A DNA stretch of 64,000 nt from the IMG/VR virus record IMGVR_UViG_3300010398_000002, positions 1 through 64,000 of that record; one strand, written 5' to 3'. Shown here piece after piece: positions 8,092 to 55,505 of this stretch. Source of the stretch: a virus. A program made the translations under genes and the position numbers. The notes under the pieces are model-generated. The model did not search any database, had not been told where the DNA came from, and saw only the letters and a program-made list of their open reading frames with translations. Positions within the stretch are counted from its first letter, which is position 1. The number at the start of each line of letters is the position of its first letter.

Positions 8092-9618
8092 CTAAACGTC
8101 AAAAAATGTCATTTGTGTGTCTCTAGGGCTGTGTACCTCACCGTCGGGACGCCACGGCAGCTTGAGCCCGGCCGGGCCGTCATAAGCAGCAGCGTCCTCA
8201 CCAGCGGCTGTCGAGCCCAGCAGCCCGGCAATGATCGGCGTGGGCTCACCACTGCGCGGCACCACCTGCGCGCCCACCAACTGCGGCTTCTTCATCAGGT
8301 GCCAGGCCAACGCGAAGCTGGACACCGGGTCAGGAAGGTGGCTGGTGTAATACTCGCGGTGTAAGTACAAGTCCTCTATCGTTGCGTAGAGATGGGCGGT
8401 ATAAGCGGAGAAGACCATTGGTGCTCGTACGTCCCCGCGCTCCACCGCTGCGACGTATTCGGACAGAAGATCGTCACGCTCTCGTCCGACCATGACGAAG
8501 TTGACTGCGCGACCTTCGATGTAGTCGTTGACCACATTGCCGAGACCTGTTCCATCGTGGATTCCCCTTGCGTTGTAAGCCTTCTTGAGCCTATTGAACT
8601 CCCCGATCATGACGGGGTACGGGCGCCGATGGGCCCGGTAGTAGTACACGAGCCGCACCGGTCGGCGCTCGCAGCGCCAGACCGAGATCACCGTGTAGTC
8701 CTGCTCCTTGGCCCAGTCTGCACCTATCACATACTCTGCTGCACGCTCCGGCTTCTCGAACTCATAGCGTTCCAGCTCCGCGCGCGCGGCACTCTTGAAC
8801 ATCTCGCCGGGGCGCAGCGAGAACATCTTGGCCACGGCACTGGAGTCGAATGCACGGTTGCCGACGCTGGGCTCCTGCAGCTCAAACTCGACTCGCCACA
8901 TCTCGGCAGACACATCCGAGCGCTTGCGCTCGACCATCTCCTGGGTGAGCCAGCCGTCGTAGTCGTTGGACGACTCCTTGTAGCACCAGCGATGCACAGA
9001 CCAATCGCGCTCGTCGGCGCGCTTGAGCACCTCGGCGAAGGTGCCGTCGGGGTACTGCAGCGTGCTGCTGGCCACCGTCTGGGACTGGATGCCCTTCTTC
9101 TGCAGCGGCTGGCCCATGGCCGCGTCGAAGATTTTGAGGTCCATCTCATCCACCTCGTCGAGGCGGAGCCGCTGCGGGTGCGGGCCACGCACGGTCTTCA
9201 TCGAGGCCGTCAGCGGGCGCACGATCGCACCGTTGGAGAGCACCAGCTGGCTTGTGATGTCGCTCTGAATCATCCATGCCGGGGCCAGGGGCGCGTTCCA
9301 GCCCTCGCGCATGGCCTCCTGGACGTTCTGTGATTGGAACAGCGATCCGCCCAGCACGGTGGCATCTGCGCCCAGCACGACGGCTTCAGTGAGCGTCAGG
9401 TAGGCCAACGTGCGGCTCTTGCCGCCCAGGCCACGACTGGCCAGCCACACGCTCACCGGGGCACTGGCGAAGAACGCCTCGGCCAGCGCATCGAACGGCG
9501 TGCTGTGCTCCGGGCAGACCTGCTTGGACGGGATGGTGATACCCCAGAGCGTCTGCACGAGCAGATACAGCTCGGTACGGTCGGCTGGTGGCCTGGCCAG
9601 GGCAAGCTGCGCGGTCAT
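8092..9618 (-). CDS. terL: terminase large subunit
   Basis: About 508 aa from ATG 9618 (ATGA overlap with upstream fibre gene; track start 9687 would overlap by 73 nt). Size and portal neighbourhood fit TerL. ATPase and nuclease halves judged by eye only. Confidence 0.75.
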   Translation of the reverse strand: MTAQLALARPPADRTELYLLVQTLWGITIPSKQVCPEHSTPFDALAEAFFASAPVSVWLASRGLGGKSRTLAYLTLTEAVVLGADATVLGGSLFQSQNVQEAMREGWNAPLAPAWMIQSDITSQLVLSNGAIVRPLTASMKTVRGPHPQRLRLDEVDEMDLKIFDAAMGQPLQKKGIQSQTVASSTLQYPDGTFAEVLKRADERDWSVHRWCYKESSNDYDGWLTQEMVERKRSDVSAEMWRVEFELQEPSVGNRAFDSSAVAKMFSLRPGEMFKSAARAELERYEFEKPERAAEYVIGADWAKEQDYTVISVWRCERRPVRLVYYYRAHRRPYPVMIGEFNRLKKAYNARGIHDGTGLGNVVNDYIEGRAVNFVMVGRERDDLLSEYVAAVERGDVRAPMVFSAYTAHLYATIEDLYLHREYYTSHLPDPVSSFALAWHLMKKPQLVGAQVVPRSGEPTPIIAGLLGSTAAGEDAAAYDGPAGLKLPWRPDGEVHSPRDTQMTFFDV

Positions 9619-36917: not shown

Positions 36918-36922
36918 GACCC

Positions 36923-36953
36923 AGCCCTCGCCGCCCGGCGGGGGCTTTCTTCA
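36923..36953 (+). terminator. intrinsic terminator
   Basis: CCCTCGCCG / CGGCGGGGG stem then CTTTCTTCAT. Confidence 0.6.
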
Positions 36954-36957
36954 TGCC

Positions 36958-37066
36958 CGAACGACGGACCTGGTCATGCCCAACCAAGCCGTCACGACGA
37001 TCCGGGCCAAGCCAACGCCTTGCCGTCACGACAGATCAGATCGGTCCCGGCCAAGCCGTCACGACT
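36958..37066 (+). repeat. mini-array: 3 exact CCGTCACGAC cores (36989, 37023, 37056; 33-34 nt apart) plus one degenerate copy (GAACGACGGACC at ~36958)
   Basis: Same motif, orientation and period as the 50-52 kb and 54-55 kb arrays. Sits 45-150 nt upstream of promoter 37110-37138. Confidence 0.8.
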
Positions 37067-37109
37067 CACCAGACCCGACCAGACCCGGCCGGGTTTTCTT
37101 AATGCCCAC

Positions 37110-47025: not shown

Positions 47026-48501
47026 TTGCCTACCACAGCAGTTGACAAGACCGAACAGGAAGTCATCGAGGAGCAGATTCTGGCCGAGCTGGGCAAGCTC
47101 GCCGGAGTGCGCTCCGGGCAGGACCGCATCCAGAAGGAGGGGACCAAGTACGTTCTGCCCCAGAGCACCTCGCTGCGCGACGACATCACGTTCCTGGTGG
47201 ACTACGCCGACGCCCTGGAGACCGAGACGGCGTTCACCCGGGTGTTCAAGTACCGCCCGTGGGACGGTGCCGCATGCTTCCAGGCGGCGCTGATGCGCGT
47301 CTGGGGCACCGCAGGCGTCGGCCAGGCCACCTACAGCTTCTTCGGAAAGAACCCGCCGGAGATGCGCACCATCGAGGTCGGGCCCCACCAGACCATGCAG
47401 ATTCCCTGGGGCCAGATTCAGTTCGCTCCGCTGTCGGCCACCATCACGTTGAGCGGTGTCGAGAGGCGGGACTTCGGGACGCTGTTCCAGATGATCGTGG
47501 TGTGCCCGAAGAAATACGCCAACCAGGTGGAGGGCCTGTTCACGATCGTCGAGCAGGAGTTGAAGGAGCACTCGATCTACAAGGGCCAGGCGTTCAACGG
47601 CGCCGAGGAACCAGGCTTCCTGGACCCCTACTCGGTGGACCGCAACAAGGTGATCTACACCGAGGAGATCGGTGACCAGCTCGACGCCAACATCTGGTCG
47701 ATGCTGCGGCACACCAAGGTGATCAAGCAGCTGGGGCTGCCGCTCAAGCGCTCGGTGCTGCTGGGTGGCCCGTACGGCACCGGCAAGAGCCTGACCGCCA
47801 TGGTCACCGCGCAGATCGCCATCGAGAACGGCTGGACCTTCGTGCAGTGCCGACCGGACGACGACCTGGCCCGGACGTTGCAGACAGCCAGGCTGTACGA
47901 ACCGGCGGTGGTGTTCTACGAGGACATCGACAACCTGTCCCGTTCCGGTGATCCAGAGACGATCAGCAAGCTGCTCGACATGTTCGACGGCATCTCCGCC
48001 AAGGGCACCCAGCTGGCCATGGTGCTCACCACCAACAAGGTGGACAGGATTCACAAGGGGATGCTGCGGCCGGGCCGTCTCGACGCGCTGATCATGCTGG
48101 ACGCGCTGGACGAGGAGAGCTTCATCCGGCTGGTCAAGGCAGCGGCGCCAGACGGCATGCTCGACCCGGAGATGGACTTCCAGGCGGTTGCCGCCTCGAT
48201 GAAGGGCTTCCTGCCCGCGTTCGTCAAGGAGGCCATCGACCGGGCCGTGCGTTACGCGGTTGCCCGGGTGGAGGGCAAGCCAGCGGTATTCACCACCCAC
48301 GACTTCGTGCGCGCCGCCGAGGGCCTGCGCCCGCAGCTGGTCACCATGAACGAGGCCAAGGACACGGTGGCGCCGGACGAGGCCAGCGTCGTCCTAGGGA
48401 AGATCGTCAAGGCAGCGGTGACCACTGGCGAAGTCGCGATCCTCGACCCTGACGACGGAAGCAAGCAGTACGTGCTCGGAACCACCAACTCCAGCACGTA
48501 A
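47026..48501 (+). CDS. AAA+ ATPase (classic FtsH/Cdc48-type module) with ~230-aa unknown N-terminal domain
   Basis: TTG start after TAAGGAGAAC. Walker A GGPYGTGKS, Walker B VVFYEDID, second region of homology TTNKVDRIHKGMLRPGRLD. Confidence 0.85.
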   Translation: MPTTAVDKTEQEVIEEQILAELGKLAGVRSGQDRIQKEGTKYVLPQSTSLRDDITFLVDYADALETETAFTRVFKYRPWDGAACFQAALMRVWGTAGVGQATYSFFGKNPPEMRTIEVGPHQTMQIPWGQIQFAPLSATITLSGVERRDFGTLFQMIVVCPKKYANQVEGLFTIVEQELKEHSIYKGQAFNGAEEPGFLDPYSVDRNKVIYTEEIGDQLDANIWSMLRHTKVIKQLGLPLKRSVLLGGPYGTGKSLTAMVTAQIAIENGWTFVQCRPDDDLARTLQTARLYEPAVVFYEDIDNLSRSGDPETISKLLDMFDGISAKGTQLAMVLTTNKVDRIHKGMLRPGRLDALIMLDALDEESFIRLVKAAAPDGMLDPEMDFQAVAASMKGFLPAFVKEAIDRAVRYAVARVEGKPAVFTTHDFVRAAEGLRPQLVTMNEAKDTVAPDEASVVLGKIVKAAVTTGEVAILDPDDGSKQYVLGTTNSST

Positions 48502-49964: not shown

Positions 49965-49997
49965 TCCGACATCGGGGGGAGAAGGAGAAACACTCTA

Positions 49998-50147
49998 ATG
50001 GTCAAGGCGATTGTTCGAGCCGTAGGTCGCATCATCCAGACAGTGCGCAGCTGGATCAAAGGGCTCTTCACGCCAAAGGCAGTGCGGTATCAACGGAAGC
50101 GCAAGGTAACGGTCTCACCGAACTCGTCCCGTCCCCAGGCTGCATGA
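49998..50147 (+). CDS. small basic peptide (49 aa) immediately upstream of repeat array 1
   Basis: Below track cutoff. ATG 49998 after GAGAAGGAGAAAC. MVKAIVRAVGRIIQTVRSWIKGLF... (amphipathic, Arg/Lys-rich). Confidence 0.4.
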   Translation: MVKAIVRAVGRIIQTVRSWIKGLFTPKAVRYQRKRKVTVSPNSSRPQAA

Positions 50148-52005
50148 CTCACCAAGCCAGCCCGGCCCTGCCCTGTCCGTCACGACGGACCGGACCAGAC
50201 CTCATCTTCCCGTCACGACAACCCTTGCCATCCCAAGCCGGTCCGTCACGACACACCACGACGCGGCCCGTCGAACCTGGCCACACCGTTCCGACAAGCC
50301 ACTACGTGTCATGCCGCGCCATCACGTCAGGACAGACCAGGTCTCACCACGCCCGTGACGACAGACCAGGACTCTCCTGTCCACGCGACAGACTTAGCCA
50401 CACCGTCCCATCCCGTCAAGACGGGCCACTCCACGCCCCATCGTTCGACGAACCTCTTCACTCCAGGCCGTTCCGACAGGCCGGTCCTCGTCTCACCCAC
50501 CCGCGCCTGGCCGCACCGTCATGACTCTCCGTTCCTGGCCCTCCCGATCCGTAACGACACTCCATACCCTCCCATGCCGTCACGACGTCCCTACCCGCCT
50601 CGCCCCTGGCCGTTCCGTCAACGACGGACCCCTCCGGCCCGAGCCAGCCCACAATGACGTGCCGCACCGAATCCGACCGATCCGATCCGGACGTACCCCG
50701 CCTTATCACCCCTATCCGTCAGGACAATCCTGGCCATCCCATTCCGCTCCCGACGATCCCAACCGAGCCGCATCAGACCGAGCCGTCACGACTGTCCGCT
50801 CCCCTCCGGCCCACACCTCACCGTGCGACGATCCCGTCCCTACTCCATACAGTCCGCACCGGTCCGTCATGACACACCTCACTGAGCCAGTCCCTCCCAC
50901 GCCGTCACGACACACCAGGTCTCGCTAAGGCACGCCGAGCCTTACCTCGCGACATTCCACTACACGCCCACCCGTCACGACAGGCCAGTACACGTCTCGC
51001 CGCCACGTCACGACCAGCCCGTCCAGCACACGCCCTGCCTTGCCGTCACGACGGTTCTAGCCGTGCCATACCGAGCCGACCCAGCACGACACTCCGCTCC
51101 GGCGCTGTCCGGCCCACAACCCGCCACACCTGGCCGAATGACTATCCACACCAGTCCCAGTCCGACAAGCCACGACCACGTCACGGCGCGCCCTTGCCAT
51201 GCCGTCAGGACTCACCAGCCCATGACCCTCCAACCCTCGCCCAGCCCATCCGTCCCTCGCGACGCATCACTCCCATCCGGCCCGCGCCATATGACAGACC
51301 GCGTCGCAACACTCCTTGCCACTCCGACAGACCGCGTCCCTCCAGGCCGTCCCGTACCGTCCGACAGACCAAGCCAAGACGTGCCGTCCCGTCACGACAG
51401 ACCGATCCGGCCCGGACCGTCCGACAGGCCACATCTCGCCCCAGTCACCCCTCCCCGTACGACAGACCTCATCAGTTCAGACCTCACCGTCATTGACTCT
51501 CCGCACCTGGTCGCGTCACCCCAGACCGTCGAGACTGTCCATCCCAGCCCAAACCGTCGCGCGACAAACCTCTCCAAACCGAACCGTCACGACAGACCGA
51601 GCCGACCCGTTCCGAATGACAGTCCACTGCACATCTGTCCTCCCCGTTCGACGATCCTGGCCAGTCTCGGCCCGCGCCATGCCGTCACGACTATCCGCTC
51701 CACAACCTGCCAGTCCGAGCCGTCACGACATGCCGTACCAGCCCGAACCGTCACGACGAACCGATCTCAACCCCGCCGCACCGCGCCCGTCCATCCGACT
51801 ATCCGTCCCTGACCCTGCCGAGCCATCACGACATGCCGAGCCCAGACATGCCCTTCCTGGCCGTCCCGCATTGTCACACCACGCCCGCACCTGGCCGTCA
51901 CGACTATCCGTACCGACCCTTATCCGACCCGACCTGGCCGTCACGACCATCCGCTCCATACCGTCCCGACATTGACACACCACGTCACTACCCATCCGCA
52001 CCACC
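50148..52005 (+). repeat. repeat array 1: degenerate ~33-nt direct repeats, core CCGTCACGAC(N3)CCG, C-rich strand
   Basis: 16 exact CGTCACGAC copies (my line-by-line count), all plus strand, plus many 1-2-mismatch copies. First three cores at 50177/50210/50243. Core occurs in all three frames. Confidence 0.9.
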
Positions 52006-52106
52006 CCCGCCCGGACGTTTCGGGCCCACCCATGCCGCACCAACTTCCCTACCCTGCCGGGTAGGGACCACGGGCCACCAAAACCAACGGCCCATGACCA
52101 GAAAGG

Positions 52107-52820
52107 GTGATCACTTTGTGGATCATCTACGAACTCAAACTGCACGTTGACCGCCTGGTGGGAGGCATCCCCAAGCACCCGACGATCATCAAGCGCTGGC
52201 AGGAGGCACACATGCCTCCAAACCCGGAGCGTGTCGCCGAGCGGACCGGCCAGCCGGTGCCCACGGTCGAGCAAGCGACCGAGAAGACCATGGACCTGCT
52301 CGGCAGCCAGATGATGGACCCCGAAGAGGTCGTGCAGGGCATCTGGACCGGCTTCGTCACCATGCCCAACGGCACCACGCTGGCGCTGGAGAACCGCAAC
52401 ATCAAGGCGATGCTCAAGGAATCCGCCAACATCGTGCGGGTGCTGCCCGACATGCCCAAGAACACCAAGGGCGGCGCGATCCCGTTGAAGAACAAGCTGG
52501 CCGAGCGGGTGTTCGTCAACCCGCCACTCATCGCGATCCTCGACGAGGACGGCAAGCAGGTCACCGAACCGGAGTCGTCACCCGAGCGGCCCATCCACGT
52601 GATGACGATGCAGGGACCGCGCACCGCGCTCAAGCGGGTGGATCAGGTCAGGGACGTCACCCTGGTGTGCCAGCTCAAGGTGCTCGACGACGGGGTGATC
52701 ACCGAGGACATGCTGCGGATCATCCTCGACCACGCCAAGGAGAACGGCCTGGGCACCGATCGCTCTACCGGCGCCGGGACCTTCGAGTACGAGTTGAAGC
52801 GGATGGACCCGCCGCAATGA
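52107..52820 (+). CDS. hypothetical 237-aa protein with Cas6/RAMP-like glycine-rich loop (candidate RNA-binding/processing protein)
   Basis: GTG 52107 or TTG 52116 (GAAAGGG SD). N-terminal beta-strand then VGGIP. NRNIKAMLKES. C-terminal GLGTDRSTGAG (aa 214-224) fits GhGxxxxxGhG. No search done. Confidence 0.7.
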   Translation: MITLWIIYELKLHVDRLVGGIPKHPTIIKRWQEAHMPPNPERVAERTGQPVPTVEQATEKTMDLLGSQMMDPEEVVQGIWTGFVTMPNGTTLALENRNIKAMLKESANIVRVLPDMPKNTKGGAIPLKNKLAERVFVNPPLIAILDEDGKQVTEPESSPERPIHVMTMQGPRTALKRVDQVRDVTLVCQLKVLDDGVITEDMLRIILDHAKENGLGTDRSTGAGTFEYELKRMDPPQ

Positions 52821-53212
52821 ATGGGGAGAAAACCACGCTGGAATACCTGTCGGACAAGTACCGGCTGCAGATAGTGGCGATGCTGTCTGCCGGGCCCACC
52901 ACGGTGGCAGACATCGTGGACCGGATCGGCGTCATCACCCACAGCACCACGCAAAAGCTCGTGGACATGATGGTCGAGGAGGGCCGTGCGCGTCTGATCG
53001 AGTACGGCAAGGCAACCGGCTCGGACTACTACGAGCTGGTGACCATGCGGACCCGGGACGAGATCGTCGGTATGGCCACGGTCGCAGAGGGCGAGTCTCA
53101 GAAGACCGAGAACGCTGACTATTGGCACGGAGTCGAGGAAGCGCTGCACTGGGTGCTGGGCGAGCAGCCAAGCGCCTTCCAGATACGAATGATGCTCAGC
53201 GCAGGACCATGA
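52817..53212 (+). CDS. ArsR/MarR-like winged-helix DNA-binding protein (131 aa)
   Basis: ATGA coupling. LSDKYRLQIVAMLSAGPTTVADIVDRIGVITHSTTQKLVDMMVEEGRARLIEYGKATGSDYYEL matches the wHTH layout. Confidence 0.7.
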   Translation: MNGEKTTLEYLSDKYRLQIVAMLSAGPTTVADIVDRIGVITHSTTQKLVDMMVEEGRARLIEYGKATGSDYYELVTMRTRDEIVGMATVAEGESQKTENADYWHGVEEALHWVLGEQPSAFQIRMMLSAGP

Positions 53213-53403
53213 CCTGGATGCAACTACAGGAGTGCTGGGGGTTCATAGACGAACGCACCGGCAAACGTGTCTCGGTGACGACGACGCCTACCAGATGGCA
53301 GGCCGAGCGTCAGCTGCGGGAATGGATCGAGCGCGACAGGCAGGGCAAGCGTCCGGACGTGCACGACGTCATTCCGCATATCAAGATCGTGCAGCTGTGG
53401 TGA
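53209..53403 (+). CDS. hypothetical protein (64 aa)
   Basis: ATGA coupling at 53209-12. Confidence 0.6.
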   Translation: MTWMQLQECWGFIDERTGKRVSVTTTPTRWQAERQLREWIERDRQGKRPDVHDVIPHIKIVQLW

Positions 53404-53503: not shown

Positions 53504-53728
53504 ATGAGTCAACTGTGGCCACCTGACGAAGACGAACAGCGCGTGCGCACCTATGACGAGCACGGTGAACCGCACGATGACGTGCTACGCACCGAGTCCG
53601 GCAAGGTGATCACCGAACAAGATATAGACAGGCTCGCTGAGGAAGCGCTCATCACGTCGCCTGTCAGTCCCTTGCGACGGGCCGCCGACCGATACCGGCG
53701 GACGAGCCGACAGTGGCCCATCGCCTAG
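53504..53728 (+). CDS. hypothetical protein (74 aa)
   Basis: ATG 53504 after GAAGGAGAAG. ...ITEQDIDRLAEEA... reminiscent of small antitoxin-like proteins (weak). Confidence 0.55.
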   Translation: MSQLWPPDEDEQRVRTYDEHGEPHDDVLRTESGKVITEQDIDRLAEEALITSPVSPLRRAADRYRRTSRQWPIA

Positions 53729-53827: not shown

Positions 53828-54091
53828 ATGTCTTACGCCAAGCCCGACCGATTCTTCGACGACGGTTTGATCTACCTGTCCACCCCAGCAGCAACGGTCG
53901 GGCTCGTGGTCAGGCACGGCCGGATCGTTGAGGCCCCGCCCTACGCCAAACGTTGGGCGTTGGGCAAGCACGCCGTGACACTGTGGCGCATGTACTCACA
54001 ACATCCGAGCAACCAACTGGTCTGGCTTCCTGACTCTCCAGCCCCTGCCATACCAAGCCGACTCCATATCACGCGGACACTCCGTACCTAA
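53828..54091 (+). CDS. hypothetical protein (87 aa); 3' end runs into array 2
   Basis: ATG 53828 (or 53816). Overlaps a Zn-ribbon-like ORF 53713..53931 in another frame. Confidence 0.5.
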   Translation: MSYAKPDRFFDDGLIYLSTPAATVGLVVRHGRIVEAPPYAKRWALGKHAVTLWRMYSQHPSNQLVWLPDSPAPAIPSRLHITRTLRT

Positions 54092-55125
54092 GCGCGCCAG
54101 GCCGAACCGACTCTTCACTCCACCGCTCGCCGCCCCGACACGACTCTCCACGTCAGTTCTCAGCGCGCCGTCACGACACTCCTCGCTACCCCTAACCTCG
54201 TCCCGCCGCACCGTCACGACACACCTCGTCACAGGCAGCCCTGATCAGGCCAAACCGTCAACGACCGGCCACGTCGTACCACTCCTGCCCCGACGATCCG
54301 CACCCCAAACCAGTCAGACCTCGCCGCCATGACGATCCGCTCCGACCCCGAACAATCCGAGCCGTCAACGACATACCTAACCGATCCGTGCCGTCCCGTC
54401 CGACAACCCAGTCCACCCCGTAACGACATTCCGGTCCGGCCCGAGCCGCCCCTTGCCGACAGACCGCATCACGACTGACCTCGACACCGTCACGACAGTC
54501 CGCACCAGCCCGAGTCAGTGCCGCCCAATCCTTGCCGTCACGACCATCCTGGCCGAGCCCATCCGCTCCGCAACGACTGACCTCGCCACCTCCACTCCGC
54601 CTCTCGCCGCCCCGTAACGACGGTCCTCGCCACTCTTCGGCCCGCCCTTGCCACTCCGTCACGACGGTCCGCGCCACGTCTCTTGCGAACCCAACCGAAC
54701 CGTCACGACTGTCCAATCCACGCCGCCCCGTGCGACGTACCTGGCCTAGCCCTACCGTTTCGACGTTCCTGGCCCATCCAGCCCGATCCATCACGACGTG
54801 CCGATTCACGCCCGGGCCAACCGGCCCAAGCCGTCACGACGACCCCTGCCTACTCGTCTCCCGCCATGCCGTCCCGTCACGACCTGCCACATCACTTCGA
54901 GCCAGACCGTCATGACATACCACTTCTTACCGGCCCAGACCGGTCCGTCACGACCTACCTCGCCTGGTCACCCCTATCCGAGCCGTTGCGACTCTCTACT
55001 CCAGTCCCGTCCTGACCTAACCATCACGACGTACCTGGCCTAGCCCACCCCGCCCGGTCCGTCACGACAATCCGTGCCTCACCAGACCTACACGTAACGA
55101 CATACCTAATCGGCCCTTCCCGAGC
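54040..55125 (+). repeat. repeat array 2: same CCGTCACGAC(N3)CC unit and orientation
   Basis: 10 exact CGTCACGAC copies (my count) plus degenerate copies (CCGTCAACGAC, CCGTAACGAC, CCATCACGAC, CCGTCATGAC...). Confidence 0.9.
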
Positions 55126-55151
55126 CGGTCCGTCCCCCGAAAGGAGGCCCC

Positions 55152-55505
55152 ATGTCCAGCCGAGATTTCCACCGCGTGCCCTATGGACACATCAGCAACC
55201 GGGGCTTCTGGCACCCCGGTAGATCGGAACGCTGCAGGTCGTGCAGCGAGCCCCGCAAGATCGTCATTCGCCCCGGCAGCAGACGCTGGACCCACTCTCA
55301 ATGGATAGCGCTGGATCGCTGGCTGCTGCGCAACTTCATCGACCTGCGCCAGGTAAGACAGGTGGAGCTGATCATCCAGCAACCGCCTGTACTGGAAGCC
55401 ACCATGCTCGATGGGACAATAATTCGGAAGCCAGTTCGGGTGGCGTACCCGGGCTGGCTCTGGCCCACCATCCCCCCGACCGAGAGGACCAGGAGTGCCG
55501 AATGA
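55152..55505 (+). CDS. hypothetical protein (117 aa)
   Basis: SD GAAAGGAGG. First gene after array 2. Confidence 0.6.
   Translation: MSSRDFHRVPYGHISNRGFWHPGRSERCRSCSEPRKIVIRPGSRRWTHSQWIALDRWLLRNFIDLRQVRQVELIIQQPPVLEATMLDGTIIRKPVRVAYPGWLWPTIPPTERTRSAE

Follow-up and report, generated by a model that had tools for sequence, protein, structure and literature searches.

What kind of system would fill two long noncoding stretches of a phage genome with one short repeat, all on one strand, on either side of a small gene island? The question is raised by a 64,000-nucleotide stretch of viral DNA (positions 1 to 64,000 of the IMG/VR record IMGVR_UViG_3300010398_000002, referred to here as the window). 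In it, an earlier sequence-only reading had described, between positions 54040 and 55125, a second array (array 2) of a repeat already seen about 2 kb upstream (array 1), and had likened the two arrays and the five-gene island between them to incC/repA/incA or split-centromere layouts. The analysis presented here indicates instead that array 2, array 1, and a third mini-array are probably RNA-encoding arrays of the vrRNA type, belonging to a VIPR-type system of a metagenomic phage of ∼80 kb. VIPR (Viral Interference Programmable Repeat) is a CRISPR-like system of RNA-guided DNA recognition that, according to the available text of the preprint, was first described in 2026 (bioRxiv 10.64898/2026.04.26.720920); as this kind of system has already been published, the locus would join it and would not form a separate category.

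Lattice organization of the repeat arrays

The repeat array is genuine and strongly nonrandom. Exact copies of CGTCACGAC number 31 in the window (1.6 expected, with a maximum of 4 in 100 shuffles), and about 28 of its plus-strand copies are grouped in three sites, 36990-37065 (n = 3), 50178-51947 (n = 16), and 54169-55068 (n = 10). The 10 exact copies in array 2 start at positions 54169, 54212, 54488, 54536, 54657, 54701, 54832, 54875, 54946, and 55060, compared with an expectation of 0.07 and a maximum of 2 in 2000 runs of a first-order Markov simulation of the C-rich array 2 interval itself. Both the number of copies and their exclusive location on the plus strand had been given correctly in the sequence-only reading; six of its start positions were exact, and the other four were off by 1 to 10 nt. 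The -NNN-CC extension that it ascribed to every copy is present 3′ of all 10, each of which also has a C on its 5′ side. Of the looser core GACNNNCC, array 2 has 28 copies (6.4 ± 2.5 expected) and array 1, which contains 16 exact copies of CGTCACGAC, has 54 (11.8 expected). The C-rich lattice of array 2 starts within the final codons of the open reading frame (ORF) at 53828-54091 (at ∼54033) and ends at ∼55135, immediately 5′ of the Shine-Dalgarno sequence that precedes the gene at 55152, limits that lie close to those of the sequence-only reading.

Both arrays are built as a lattice of NNNCC pentamers that is broken every 28 to 48 nt by an 8- to 9-nt motif, CC-GTCA(N)CGAC, so that the unit on the plus strand can be written as [CC-GTCA(N)CGAC-NNN]+(CC-NNN)k and the same unit on the minus strand as (GGNNN)k-GTCG(N)TGAC. 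This organization follows from the anchored logos, CC-NNN-CC-GTCACGAC-NNN-CC-NNN-CC-NNN-CC, and from the autocorrelation of the CC dinucleotide, which peaks at lags of 5, 10, and 15 and then at 18, 23, 28, 33, 38, and 43, indicating a phase shift of three at each 8-nt motif. The distances from motif to motif peak at 28, 33, 38, 43, and 48 nt, that is, at 13+5k; of the 76 spacings that do not exceed 60 nt, 39 are 3 mod 5 (20% expected), as are 14 of 25 in array 2 alone. Neither the pentamer order nor the third mini-array had been noticed in the sequence-only reading. Arrays 1 and 2 agree in motif, strand, spacing rule, and composition (C 46%, G 20%, GC skew of -0.39), which bears out the earlier view of a single repeat in a single orientation. 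The noncoding stretches that hold them, 49965-52106 and 54092-55151, have C contents of 44 to 46%, a G content of 20%, and a GC skew of about -0.39; the island between the arrays shows no GC skew.

The three free positions of the pentamer are compositionally unbiased, and their pairwise identity stays at the chance level (0.289 expected), with values of 0.275 for array 1, 0.289 for array 2, and 0.282 for comparisons between the two. There has therefore been no gene conversion and no recent duplication, and the pattern alone has been kept. This rules out concerted evolution of the units, one of the two courses that the sequence-only reading had considered. Folding is weak in the arrays, with -20 to -40 kcal/mol for each 150 nt (-43 to -65 kcal/mol in the flanking genes), and 3-nt periodicity is absent. 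ORFs within them are of low complexity and, given the missing periodicity, were rejected as genes. Public gene calls nevertheless place "proteins" of 171 to 366 amino acids in the arrays of three related loci (L121, 9023-9697; L122, 11593-12381; L161, 4256-5356 and 5367-5882), and these are spurious low-complexity ORFs. A search of the whole window against Rfam found no family and hence no hammerhead-type processing element, and scans for promoter and terminator consensus sequences inside the arrays gave nothing above chance.

Skewed composition raises the thought that the arrays might act without any protein partner, as giant Rho-utilization (rut) tracts or as G-quadruplex or i-motif DNA that modulates transcription polarity. 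The plus strand is indeed C-rich, G-poor, untranslated, and weakly folded, and the (GGNNN)n order of the minus strand would suit a two-tetrad G-quadruplex pattern. Still, this explanation is scarcely credible: it accounts for neither the 8- to 9-nt motif nor the exact 5-nt quantization, the free positions show no compositional bias, and the arrays have a near-obligate link to one protein family across hosts with GC contents of 46 to 73% (see below). Chi-like sites, primase sites, and -35-box decoys were set aside along with rut and G-quadruplex/i-motif elements, as all of them leave the motif, the lattice, and the linkage to the RAMP gene unexplained.

The RAMP-fold protein and its neighbors

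The first gene of the island (Table 1) encodes what its predicted structure identifies as a RAMP-fold RNA-binding protein. The AlphaFold2 model, based on an alignment of 52 homologs, has a pLDDT (predicted local distance difference test) score of 92.9. The 50 best PDB matches listed by Foldseek are all class 1 CRISPR effector complexes, mostly their Cas7-type subunits, and include type VII Cas7, Csm3, Cas7-11, and Cmr4 (best E value, 1.7e-8; TM-scores, 0.45 to 0.59); the best match among the viral structures in BFVD is annotated as RAMP. A long β-hairpin (the thumb) occupies residues 157 to 190, and the conserved C-terminal motif NGLGxDRSQGxGxF lies at the canonical position of the RAMP glycine-rich loop (α2-β4, between the final helix and the final strand). 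The region of this motif gives weak but consistent hidden Markov model matches to Csm4, Cas5-IV, and Cas7-IIId. The protein has no match in Pfam or in PHROG (PHROGs were run on ten local proteins), and no cas genes were found near its gene. An identical protein is encoded on the 80-kb ENA metagenome contig k141_2309669.

Table 1. Positions of the repeat arrays, genes, and spacer in the window (aa, amino acids; HTH, helix-turn-helix)
Feature	Position	Strand	Description
Array 2	54033..55135		∼28 units; candidate vrRNA array
Array 1	50120..52000		∼54 units, adjoining the RAMP gene on its 5′ side; shares the logo and spacing rule of array 2
Mini-array	36960..37080		3 exact CCGTCACGAC units 33-34 nt apart and one degenerate unit
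vipr-like gene	52116..52820	+	234 aa; predicted single-RRM RAMP with thumb hairpin and C-terminal G-rich loop (NGLGTDRSTGAGTF)
Candidate vap gene	52820..53212	+	130-aa winged-helix/HTH protein; start overlaps the RAMP stop codon
Three small ORFs	53209-53403, 53504-53728, 53828-54091	+	not conserved beside the RAMP gene in relatives
Structured spacer	52000..52115	+	three hairpins, from array 1 to the RAMP start codon; minimum free energy of -54.3 kcal/mol, z = -2.66 versus shuffles

The product of the second island gene matches the winged-HTH part of Csa3 in PADLOC (E value, 9e-6) and, weakly, the HTH_20, MarR_2, and DUF7342 families of Pfam. As the gene found downstream of the RAMP gene varies among relatives, it can be regarded only as a candidate for the vap accessory gene. 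The three small ORFs that follow have no matches in Pfam or PHROG and no homologs at related loci, and none of the island genes matches Rep, ParA, or ParB in these two databases. Elsewhere in the window there are phage-type replication genes whose products are ∼35% identical to those of Gordonia phages, and the host of this uncultured phage is probably actinobacterial.

Co-occurrence of the arrays with the RAMP gene

The RAMP family is large. A word-indexed search returned 103 matches, and an exhaustive search returned 2,291 clusters at 50% identity with E values of ≤1e-3, of which 1,540 have E values of ≤1e-10. Most family members lie on contigs of 1 to 5 kb, which suggests that the arrays break short-read assemblies. 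Long contigs and IMG/VR were the sources of the 35 loci analyzed, together with a single cultured phage, Microcystis phage Mae-JY09. In 32 of them, including Mae-JY09, a C-skewed array rich in GACNNNCC lies within ∼1.5 kb of the RAMP gene, always on the strand of that gene and upstream of it, downstream of it, or on both sides. The reciprocal test used 196 IMG/VR loci that had been pulled by the motif alone and that, consisting mostly of single chance matches, served as a background set; three of these are array-rich, and all three encode a RAMP homolog. Other searches for related loci, with the single RAMP protein, by a contig scan of the genome collection, and in a plasmid database, yielded nothing, and a megablast search with the 49.9- to 56.3-kb region found no match among 50,697 phage records.

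Array architecture varies within these limits. L123, L137, L143, L146, and L149 each have two arrays, as does the window, and in the last four of these the arrays bracket the RAMP gene. The arrays of L161 extend over ∼3 kb. L124 contains 51 copies of CCGTCATTGAC at spacings of 24, 29, 34, 39, and 44 nt (14+5k), and unit lengths of 14+5k are also found in L122. In L125, the gene and its array are together inverted relative to all neighboring genes. Distant relatives retain just the asymmetric half-site CGAC-NNN-CC.

The suggestion that the arrays and the island form a functional unit, which would have been undermined by relatives that keep one without the other, is upheld by these figures for the first island gene. 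It does not hold for the other four genes, which are not conserved at related loci. No second gene conserved across the related loci was found, and a conserved second protein partner was rejected, the only recurrent neighbors being an ORF in seven distant loci and ParB-like genes in three. The former encodes 170 to 240 amino acids, has no Pfam match, and is located directly 5′ of the RAMP gene (L130, 3423-3962; L144; L149; L152; L154; L155; L156), which makes it a candidate accessory gene of the sub-clade to which these distant loci belong. The latter, with DUF6551 or with ParB_N and HTH_ParB domains, are found just 5′ of the RAMP gene (L122, 8893-9729; L160, 1-852; L127, 9088-9924) and could be alternative, vap-like accessory genes.

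These data bear directly on the comparison with incC/repA/incA and split centromeres. Were the arrays to function as double-stranded DNA (dsDNA), they would be iteron-, centromere-, or operator-like sites for winged-helix or ParB-like proteins and would control replication, partition, or local chromatin. The near-palindromic motif (GTC-N2-3-GAC), the winged-HTH gene in the island, the ParB_N or DUF6551 genes that precede the RAMP gene in L122, L127, and L160, and the terminator hairpins found beside some arrays, where they might serve as insulation, could all be cited in its favor. The resemblance to plasmid systems such as incC-repA-incA of P1 and parC of R1 is that two clusters of direct repeats bracket genes; in contrast to those iterons and centromeres (parS-parC), the repeats here are far more numerous, their composition is strand asymmetric, and their partner is an RNA-binding RAMP. 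The comparison fails because the island has no Rep or Par gene, the polarity is strictly single stranded over 3 kb, the 5-nt lattice and the spacings of 13+5k are out of helical phase (not multiples of 10.5), and there is no concerted evolution. In addition, distant relatives keep just the half-site, and it is the RAMP gene that is conserved across the loci, not the winged-HTH or ParB-like genes. A role of the arrays as dsDNA sites is thus very unlikely.

Proposed assignment to VIPR

As reported in the available text of the preprint (bioRxiv 10.64898/2026.04.26.720920), VIPR is a pre-CRISPR system with a gapped pentamer code that silences competing phages. The survey covered 664 loci in NCBI NR, mostly viral, and divided them into seven types. 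The Vipr protein is a minimal RAMP, encoded mostly by phages, and the accessory gene vap is winged-helix- or HTH-like in types II, VI, and VII. A vrRNA consists of 9 to 16 YNNGG pentamers, in which GGY is held by the protein and NN reads the dsDNA target with a one-nucleotide skip. Other VIPR repeats (NNNGG, YNNNG, and NNNNG) occur in long flanking intergenic regions, and some arrays are "staggered," with the next vrRNA beginning where the previous one ends.

The control locus, that of the type II exemplar Escherichia phage SUSP1 (KT454805.2), has genes for proteins of 195 and 146 amino acids (vipr and vap) between two intergenic tracts of GGYNN pentamers, which are on the vipr-sense strand and carry a hairpin tail. 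Alignment of the profile of the window family (52 sequences) with that of the SUSP1 clade (33 sequences) by hhalign gave a probability of 74.5% and an E value of 2.7e-5 over 135 columns that span the conserved helix, the thumb region, and the G-loop. By this profile comparison, the RAMP protein of the window is a remote homolog of the characterized SUSP1 Vipr. Like the SUSP1 system, the locus combines a minimal RAMP of a phage, an adjacent small gene of a putative DNA-binding type, and arrays on both sides, and it lacks cas1, cas2, and CRISPR repeats. It differs in having three free positions (NNNGG/NNNCC in place of GGY/NN), in joining its units by an 8- to 9-nt near-palindromic motif where SUSP1 has a structured tail of ∼40 nt with its own terminator, and in the sheer size of its arrays (1.1 and 1.9 kb with ∼85 units, as opposed to 4 vrRNAs).

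Several diagnostic properties of VIPR are present: a small single-RRM RAMP with a G-loop and a thumb, encoded outside any CRISPR-Cas locus; tracts of pentamers with a conserved G dinucleotide on both sides of vipr, (NNNCC)n on the plus strand being (GGNNN)n on the minus strand; and a viral or proviral context, with relatives in IMG/VR and in Mae-JY09. The type II arrangement of sense-strand repeats with an invariant structured 3′ tail was not found, the sense strand reading CC and the sole invariant element being 8 to 9 nt long; since the preprint allows staggered arrays, this excludes type II but not VIPR. The fold, the remote homology, the viral context, the predicted DNA-binding-type neighbor, and the hypervariable pentamer arrays on both flanks all fit a VIPR assignment.

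By analogy with the characterized type II system, Vipr subunits would bind the pentamer-repeat RNA, gripping the conserved dinucleotide in every pentamer (GG if the minus strand is read, CC if the plus strand is). The variable bases would then be presented to read a dsDNA target in a gapped, noncontiguous code, the adjacent winged-helix protein could serve as the DNA-binding accessory protein, and a competing phage, prophage, or satellite would end up repressed. The near-palindromic GTCA(N)CGAC may mark the junction of successive guides of 3 to 7 pentamers each, fewer than the 9 to 16 of type II; with the motif taken as such a junction, array 2 would be a head-to-tail string of ∼28 guides, and the phage would encode ∼85.

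Several observations weigh against this assignment. The units are short, with 3 to 5 perfect pentamers (9 to 16 in type II), and have no structured 3′ tail; the homology to the SUSP1 Vipr is remote, a single sequence giving an E value of 0.01. Skip rules of 0 to 3, applied in a pooled target search, gave no enrichment (8 matches versus 2 to 6 in controls) in a database of 384 kb of related sequence, a size that, with guides this short, affords little power. The G-type repeats of SUSP1 and of the related loci L134 and L239 are vipr-sense; in the window and 32 relatives, the vipr-sense strand reads CC. Finally, terminator-like hairpins with T-runs on the plus strand come after the mini-array and also after the arrays in L160, L143, and L133.

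Strand of the proposed array RNA

The last two of these observations concern the strand from which the RNA is read. The plus-strand hairpins would fit a sense RNA of the CC type, which does not appear in the available text of the preprint. No signal for transcription of the minus strand of the arrays was found, and a terminator scan across 27 loci revealed no consistent pattern. Evidence for the opposite strand comes from a sister sub-clade (34 to 37% identity; L134, 34%; L239 to L241, with protein P0084) whose arrays are G-type on the sense strand: at 941-1260 in L134 and 3700-3960 in L239, a motif (T)GA(C/A)GGCGAG is followed by (NNNNG)k, with unit lengths of 23, 28, 33, 38, and 43 nt (13+5k). 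The minus strand of the window, GTCG-TGAC-GG-NNN-GG, agrees with the TGAC-GG-CGA-G-NNNN-G of L134 in both motif and lattice phase, which favors a G-type RNA antisense to the RAMP gene, i.e., arrays that have been inverted in the clade of the window. P0084 is very abundant and is indexed in 80 blocks of the collection. On balance, antisense G-type RNA comes out only slightly ahead of sense CC-type RNA, the two being close to evenly matched.

One specific form of the sense alternative is that the arrays yield a vipr-sense vrRNA, (NNNCC)n with a GUCA(N)CGAC junction, made by a lineage that has switched its gripped dinucleotide from GG to CC and now draws ∼85 guides from kilobase-long head-to-tail arrays. 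This proposal is possible but rather doubtful. If true, it would reveal a second "alphabet" for the noncontiguous code and ∼85 very short guides of 9 to 21 informative nucleotides each, perhaps acting in combination. Were the antisense G-type RNA the true one, fixed antisense arrays of kilobase length within an operon would themselves constitute an architecture not described before.

A sense CC-type RNA need not be a guide at all. Transcribed with the RAMP gene and unstructured, it could be a scaffold or sponge on which the RAMP protein polymerizes every 5 nt, with a nonguide role such as a decoy of host Cas or RNA-binding factors in anti-defense. At 32 loci the CC lattice and the RAMP gene share one orientation, several arrays are closed by plus-strand terminator hairpins, the arrays fold weakly, and the loci lie amid genes of early or anti-defense type (ArdC-N, DUF932, ParB-like); precedents exist in the orphan cas homologs of viruses, in anti-CRISPR RNAs that mimic repeats, and in the filaments that type IV-B Csf2 forms on non-CRISPR RNA. 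An explanation of this sort is nonetheless unlikely. Every Vipr RNA described in the available text of the preprint is of the G type, the sister sub-clade has G-type arrays that match the antisense of the window, so that an inversion is more parsimonious than a switch from GG to CC, and random N positions kept over ∼85 units resemble stored information.

Comparison with other systems

The VIPR-type locus proposed here shares with class 1 CRISPR-Cas systems (Cas7, Csm3, and Cmr4, with the 6-nt ruler of type III) the RAMP fold, a presumed periodic grip on RNA, lengths quantized by the footprint of a subunit, and a conserved handle beside a variable body. In contrast to these systems, its period is 5 nt and not 6, and a single small RAMP is encoded by a virus. 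There are no repeats of 23 to 55 nt with unique acquired spacers and no Cas1/2, Cas5, Cas6, Cas10, Cas11, or Cas8. With a conserved element of just 8 to 9 nt, "spacers" that are NNNCC lattices, and one RAMP gene, the locus does not qualify as CRISPR-Cas. Type IV-B Csf2 filaments, viral orphan cas genes, and Racr RNAs likewise involve a Cas7-like protein encoded by a mobile element without a CRISPR array, but the RNAs of Csf2 and Racr are heterogeneous host RNAs or mimics of host repeats, whereas here there is a dedicated, genome-encoded pentamer array. TRAP, with its 11 (G/U)AG-NN elements, and the GGA sponge CsrB also present a short conserved element every ∼5 nt with free spacer bases; their spacers hold no information and their folds are unrelated, whereas the free bases here are presumed to be the payload.

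The locus, itself well resolved, opens onto a family of at least 1,540 clusters at 50% identity (E values of ≤1e-10) that has no Pfam or PHROG model and in which nearly every member examined is accompanied by kilobase-long arrays. It bears on how such a code is stored and processed, through the 5-nt quantization of guide length, an 8- to 9-nt junction that replaces the structured tail, dozens of putative guides per phage, and arrays whose polarity is the reverse of that in the characterized system. Recognizing the arrays would also improve the annotation of phage genomes, where public gene calls misannotate them as proteins of 220 to 370 amino acids.

Elements next to the arrays

The mini-array lies at the point where leftward genes give way to rightward ones, 13 kb away from the main locus. 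It is framed by terminator-like hairpins at 36921-36950 and 37076-37098, and a small ORF precedes it, as does a box of the extended -10 type (TGGTATAGT, ∼36695). Its units may be a group of guides with their own expression. The three hairpins of the structured spacer at 52000-52115 may constitute a processing, terminator, or translation-control element.

Some related loci carry further elements. The 1.8-kb array of L124 is split at 9425-9490 by an AT-rich insert of ∼60 nt with a hairpin and a T-run on the plus strand, and a perfect -35 hexamer (TTGACA) is embedded in the motif of this array, CCGTCATTGACA, and is present in 40+ copies. In L127 (11067-11420), a good sigma-70-like promoter (TTGACA-17-TATCTT) lies directly 3′ of the RAMP operon and is followed by ∼300 nt of apparently structured noncoding sequence and then by a degenerate array; the structured stretch may be a tail or a processing element of another architecture. 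In the window itself, a gene at 47026-48501, 1.5 kb upstream of array 1, encodes an AAA+ ATPase of 491 amino acids whose match to IetA in PADLOC is weak (E value, 8e-6).

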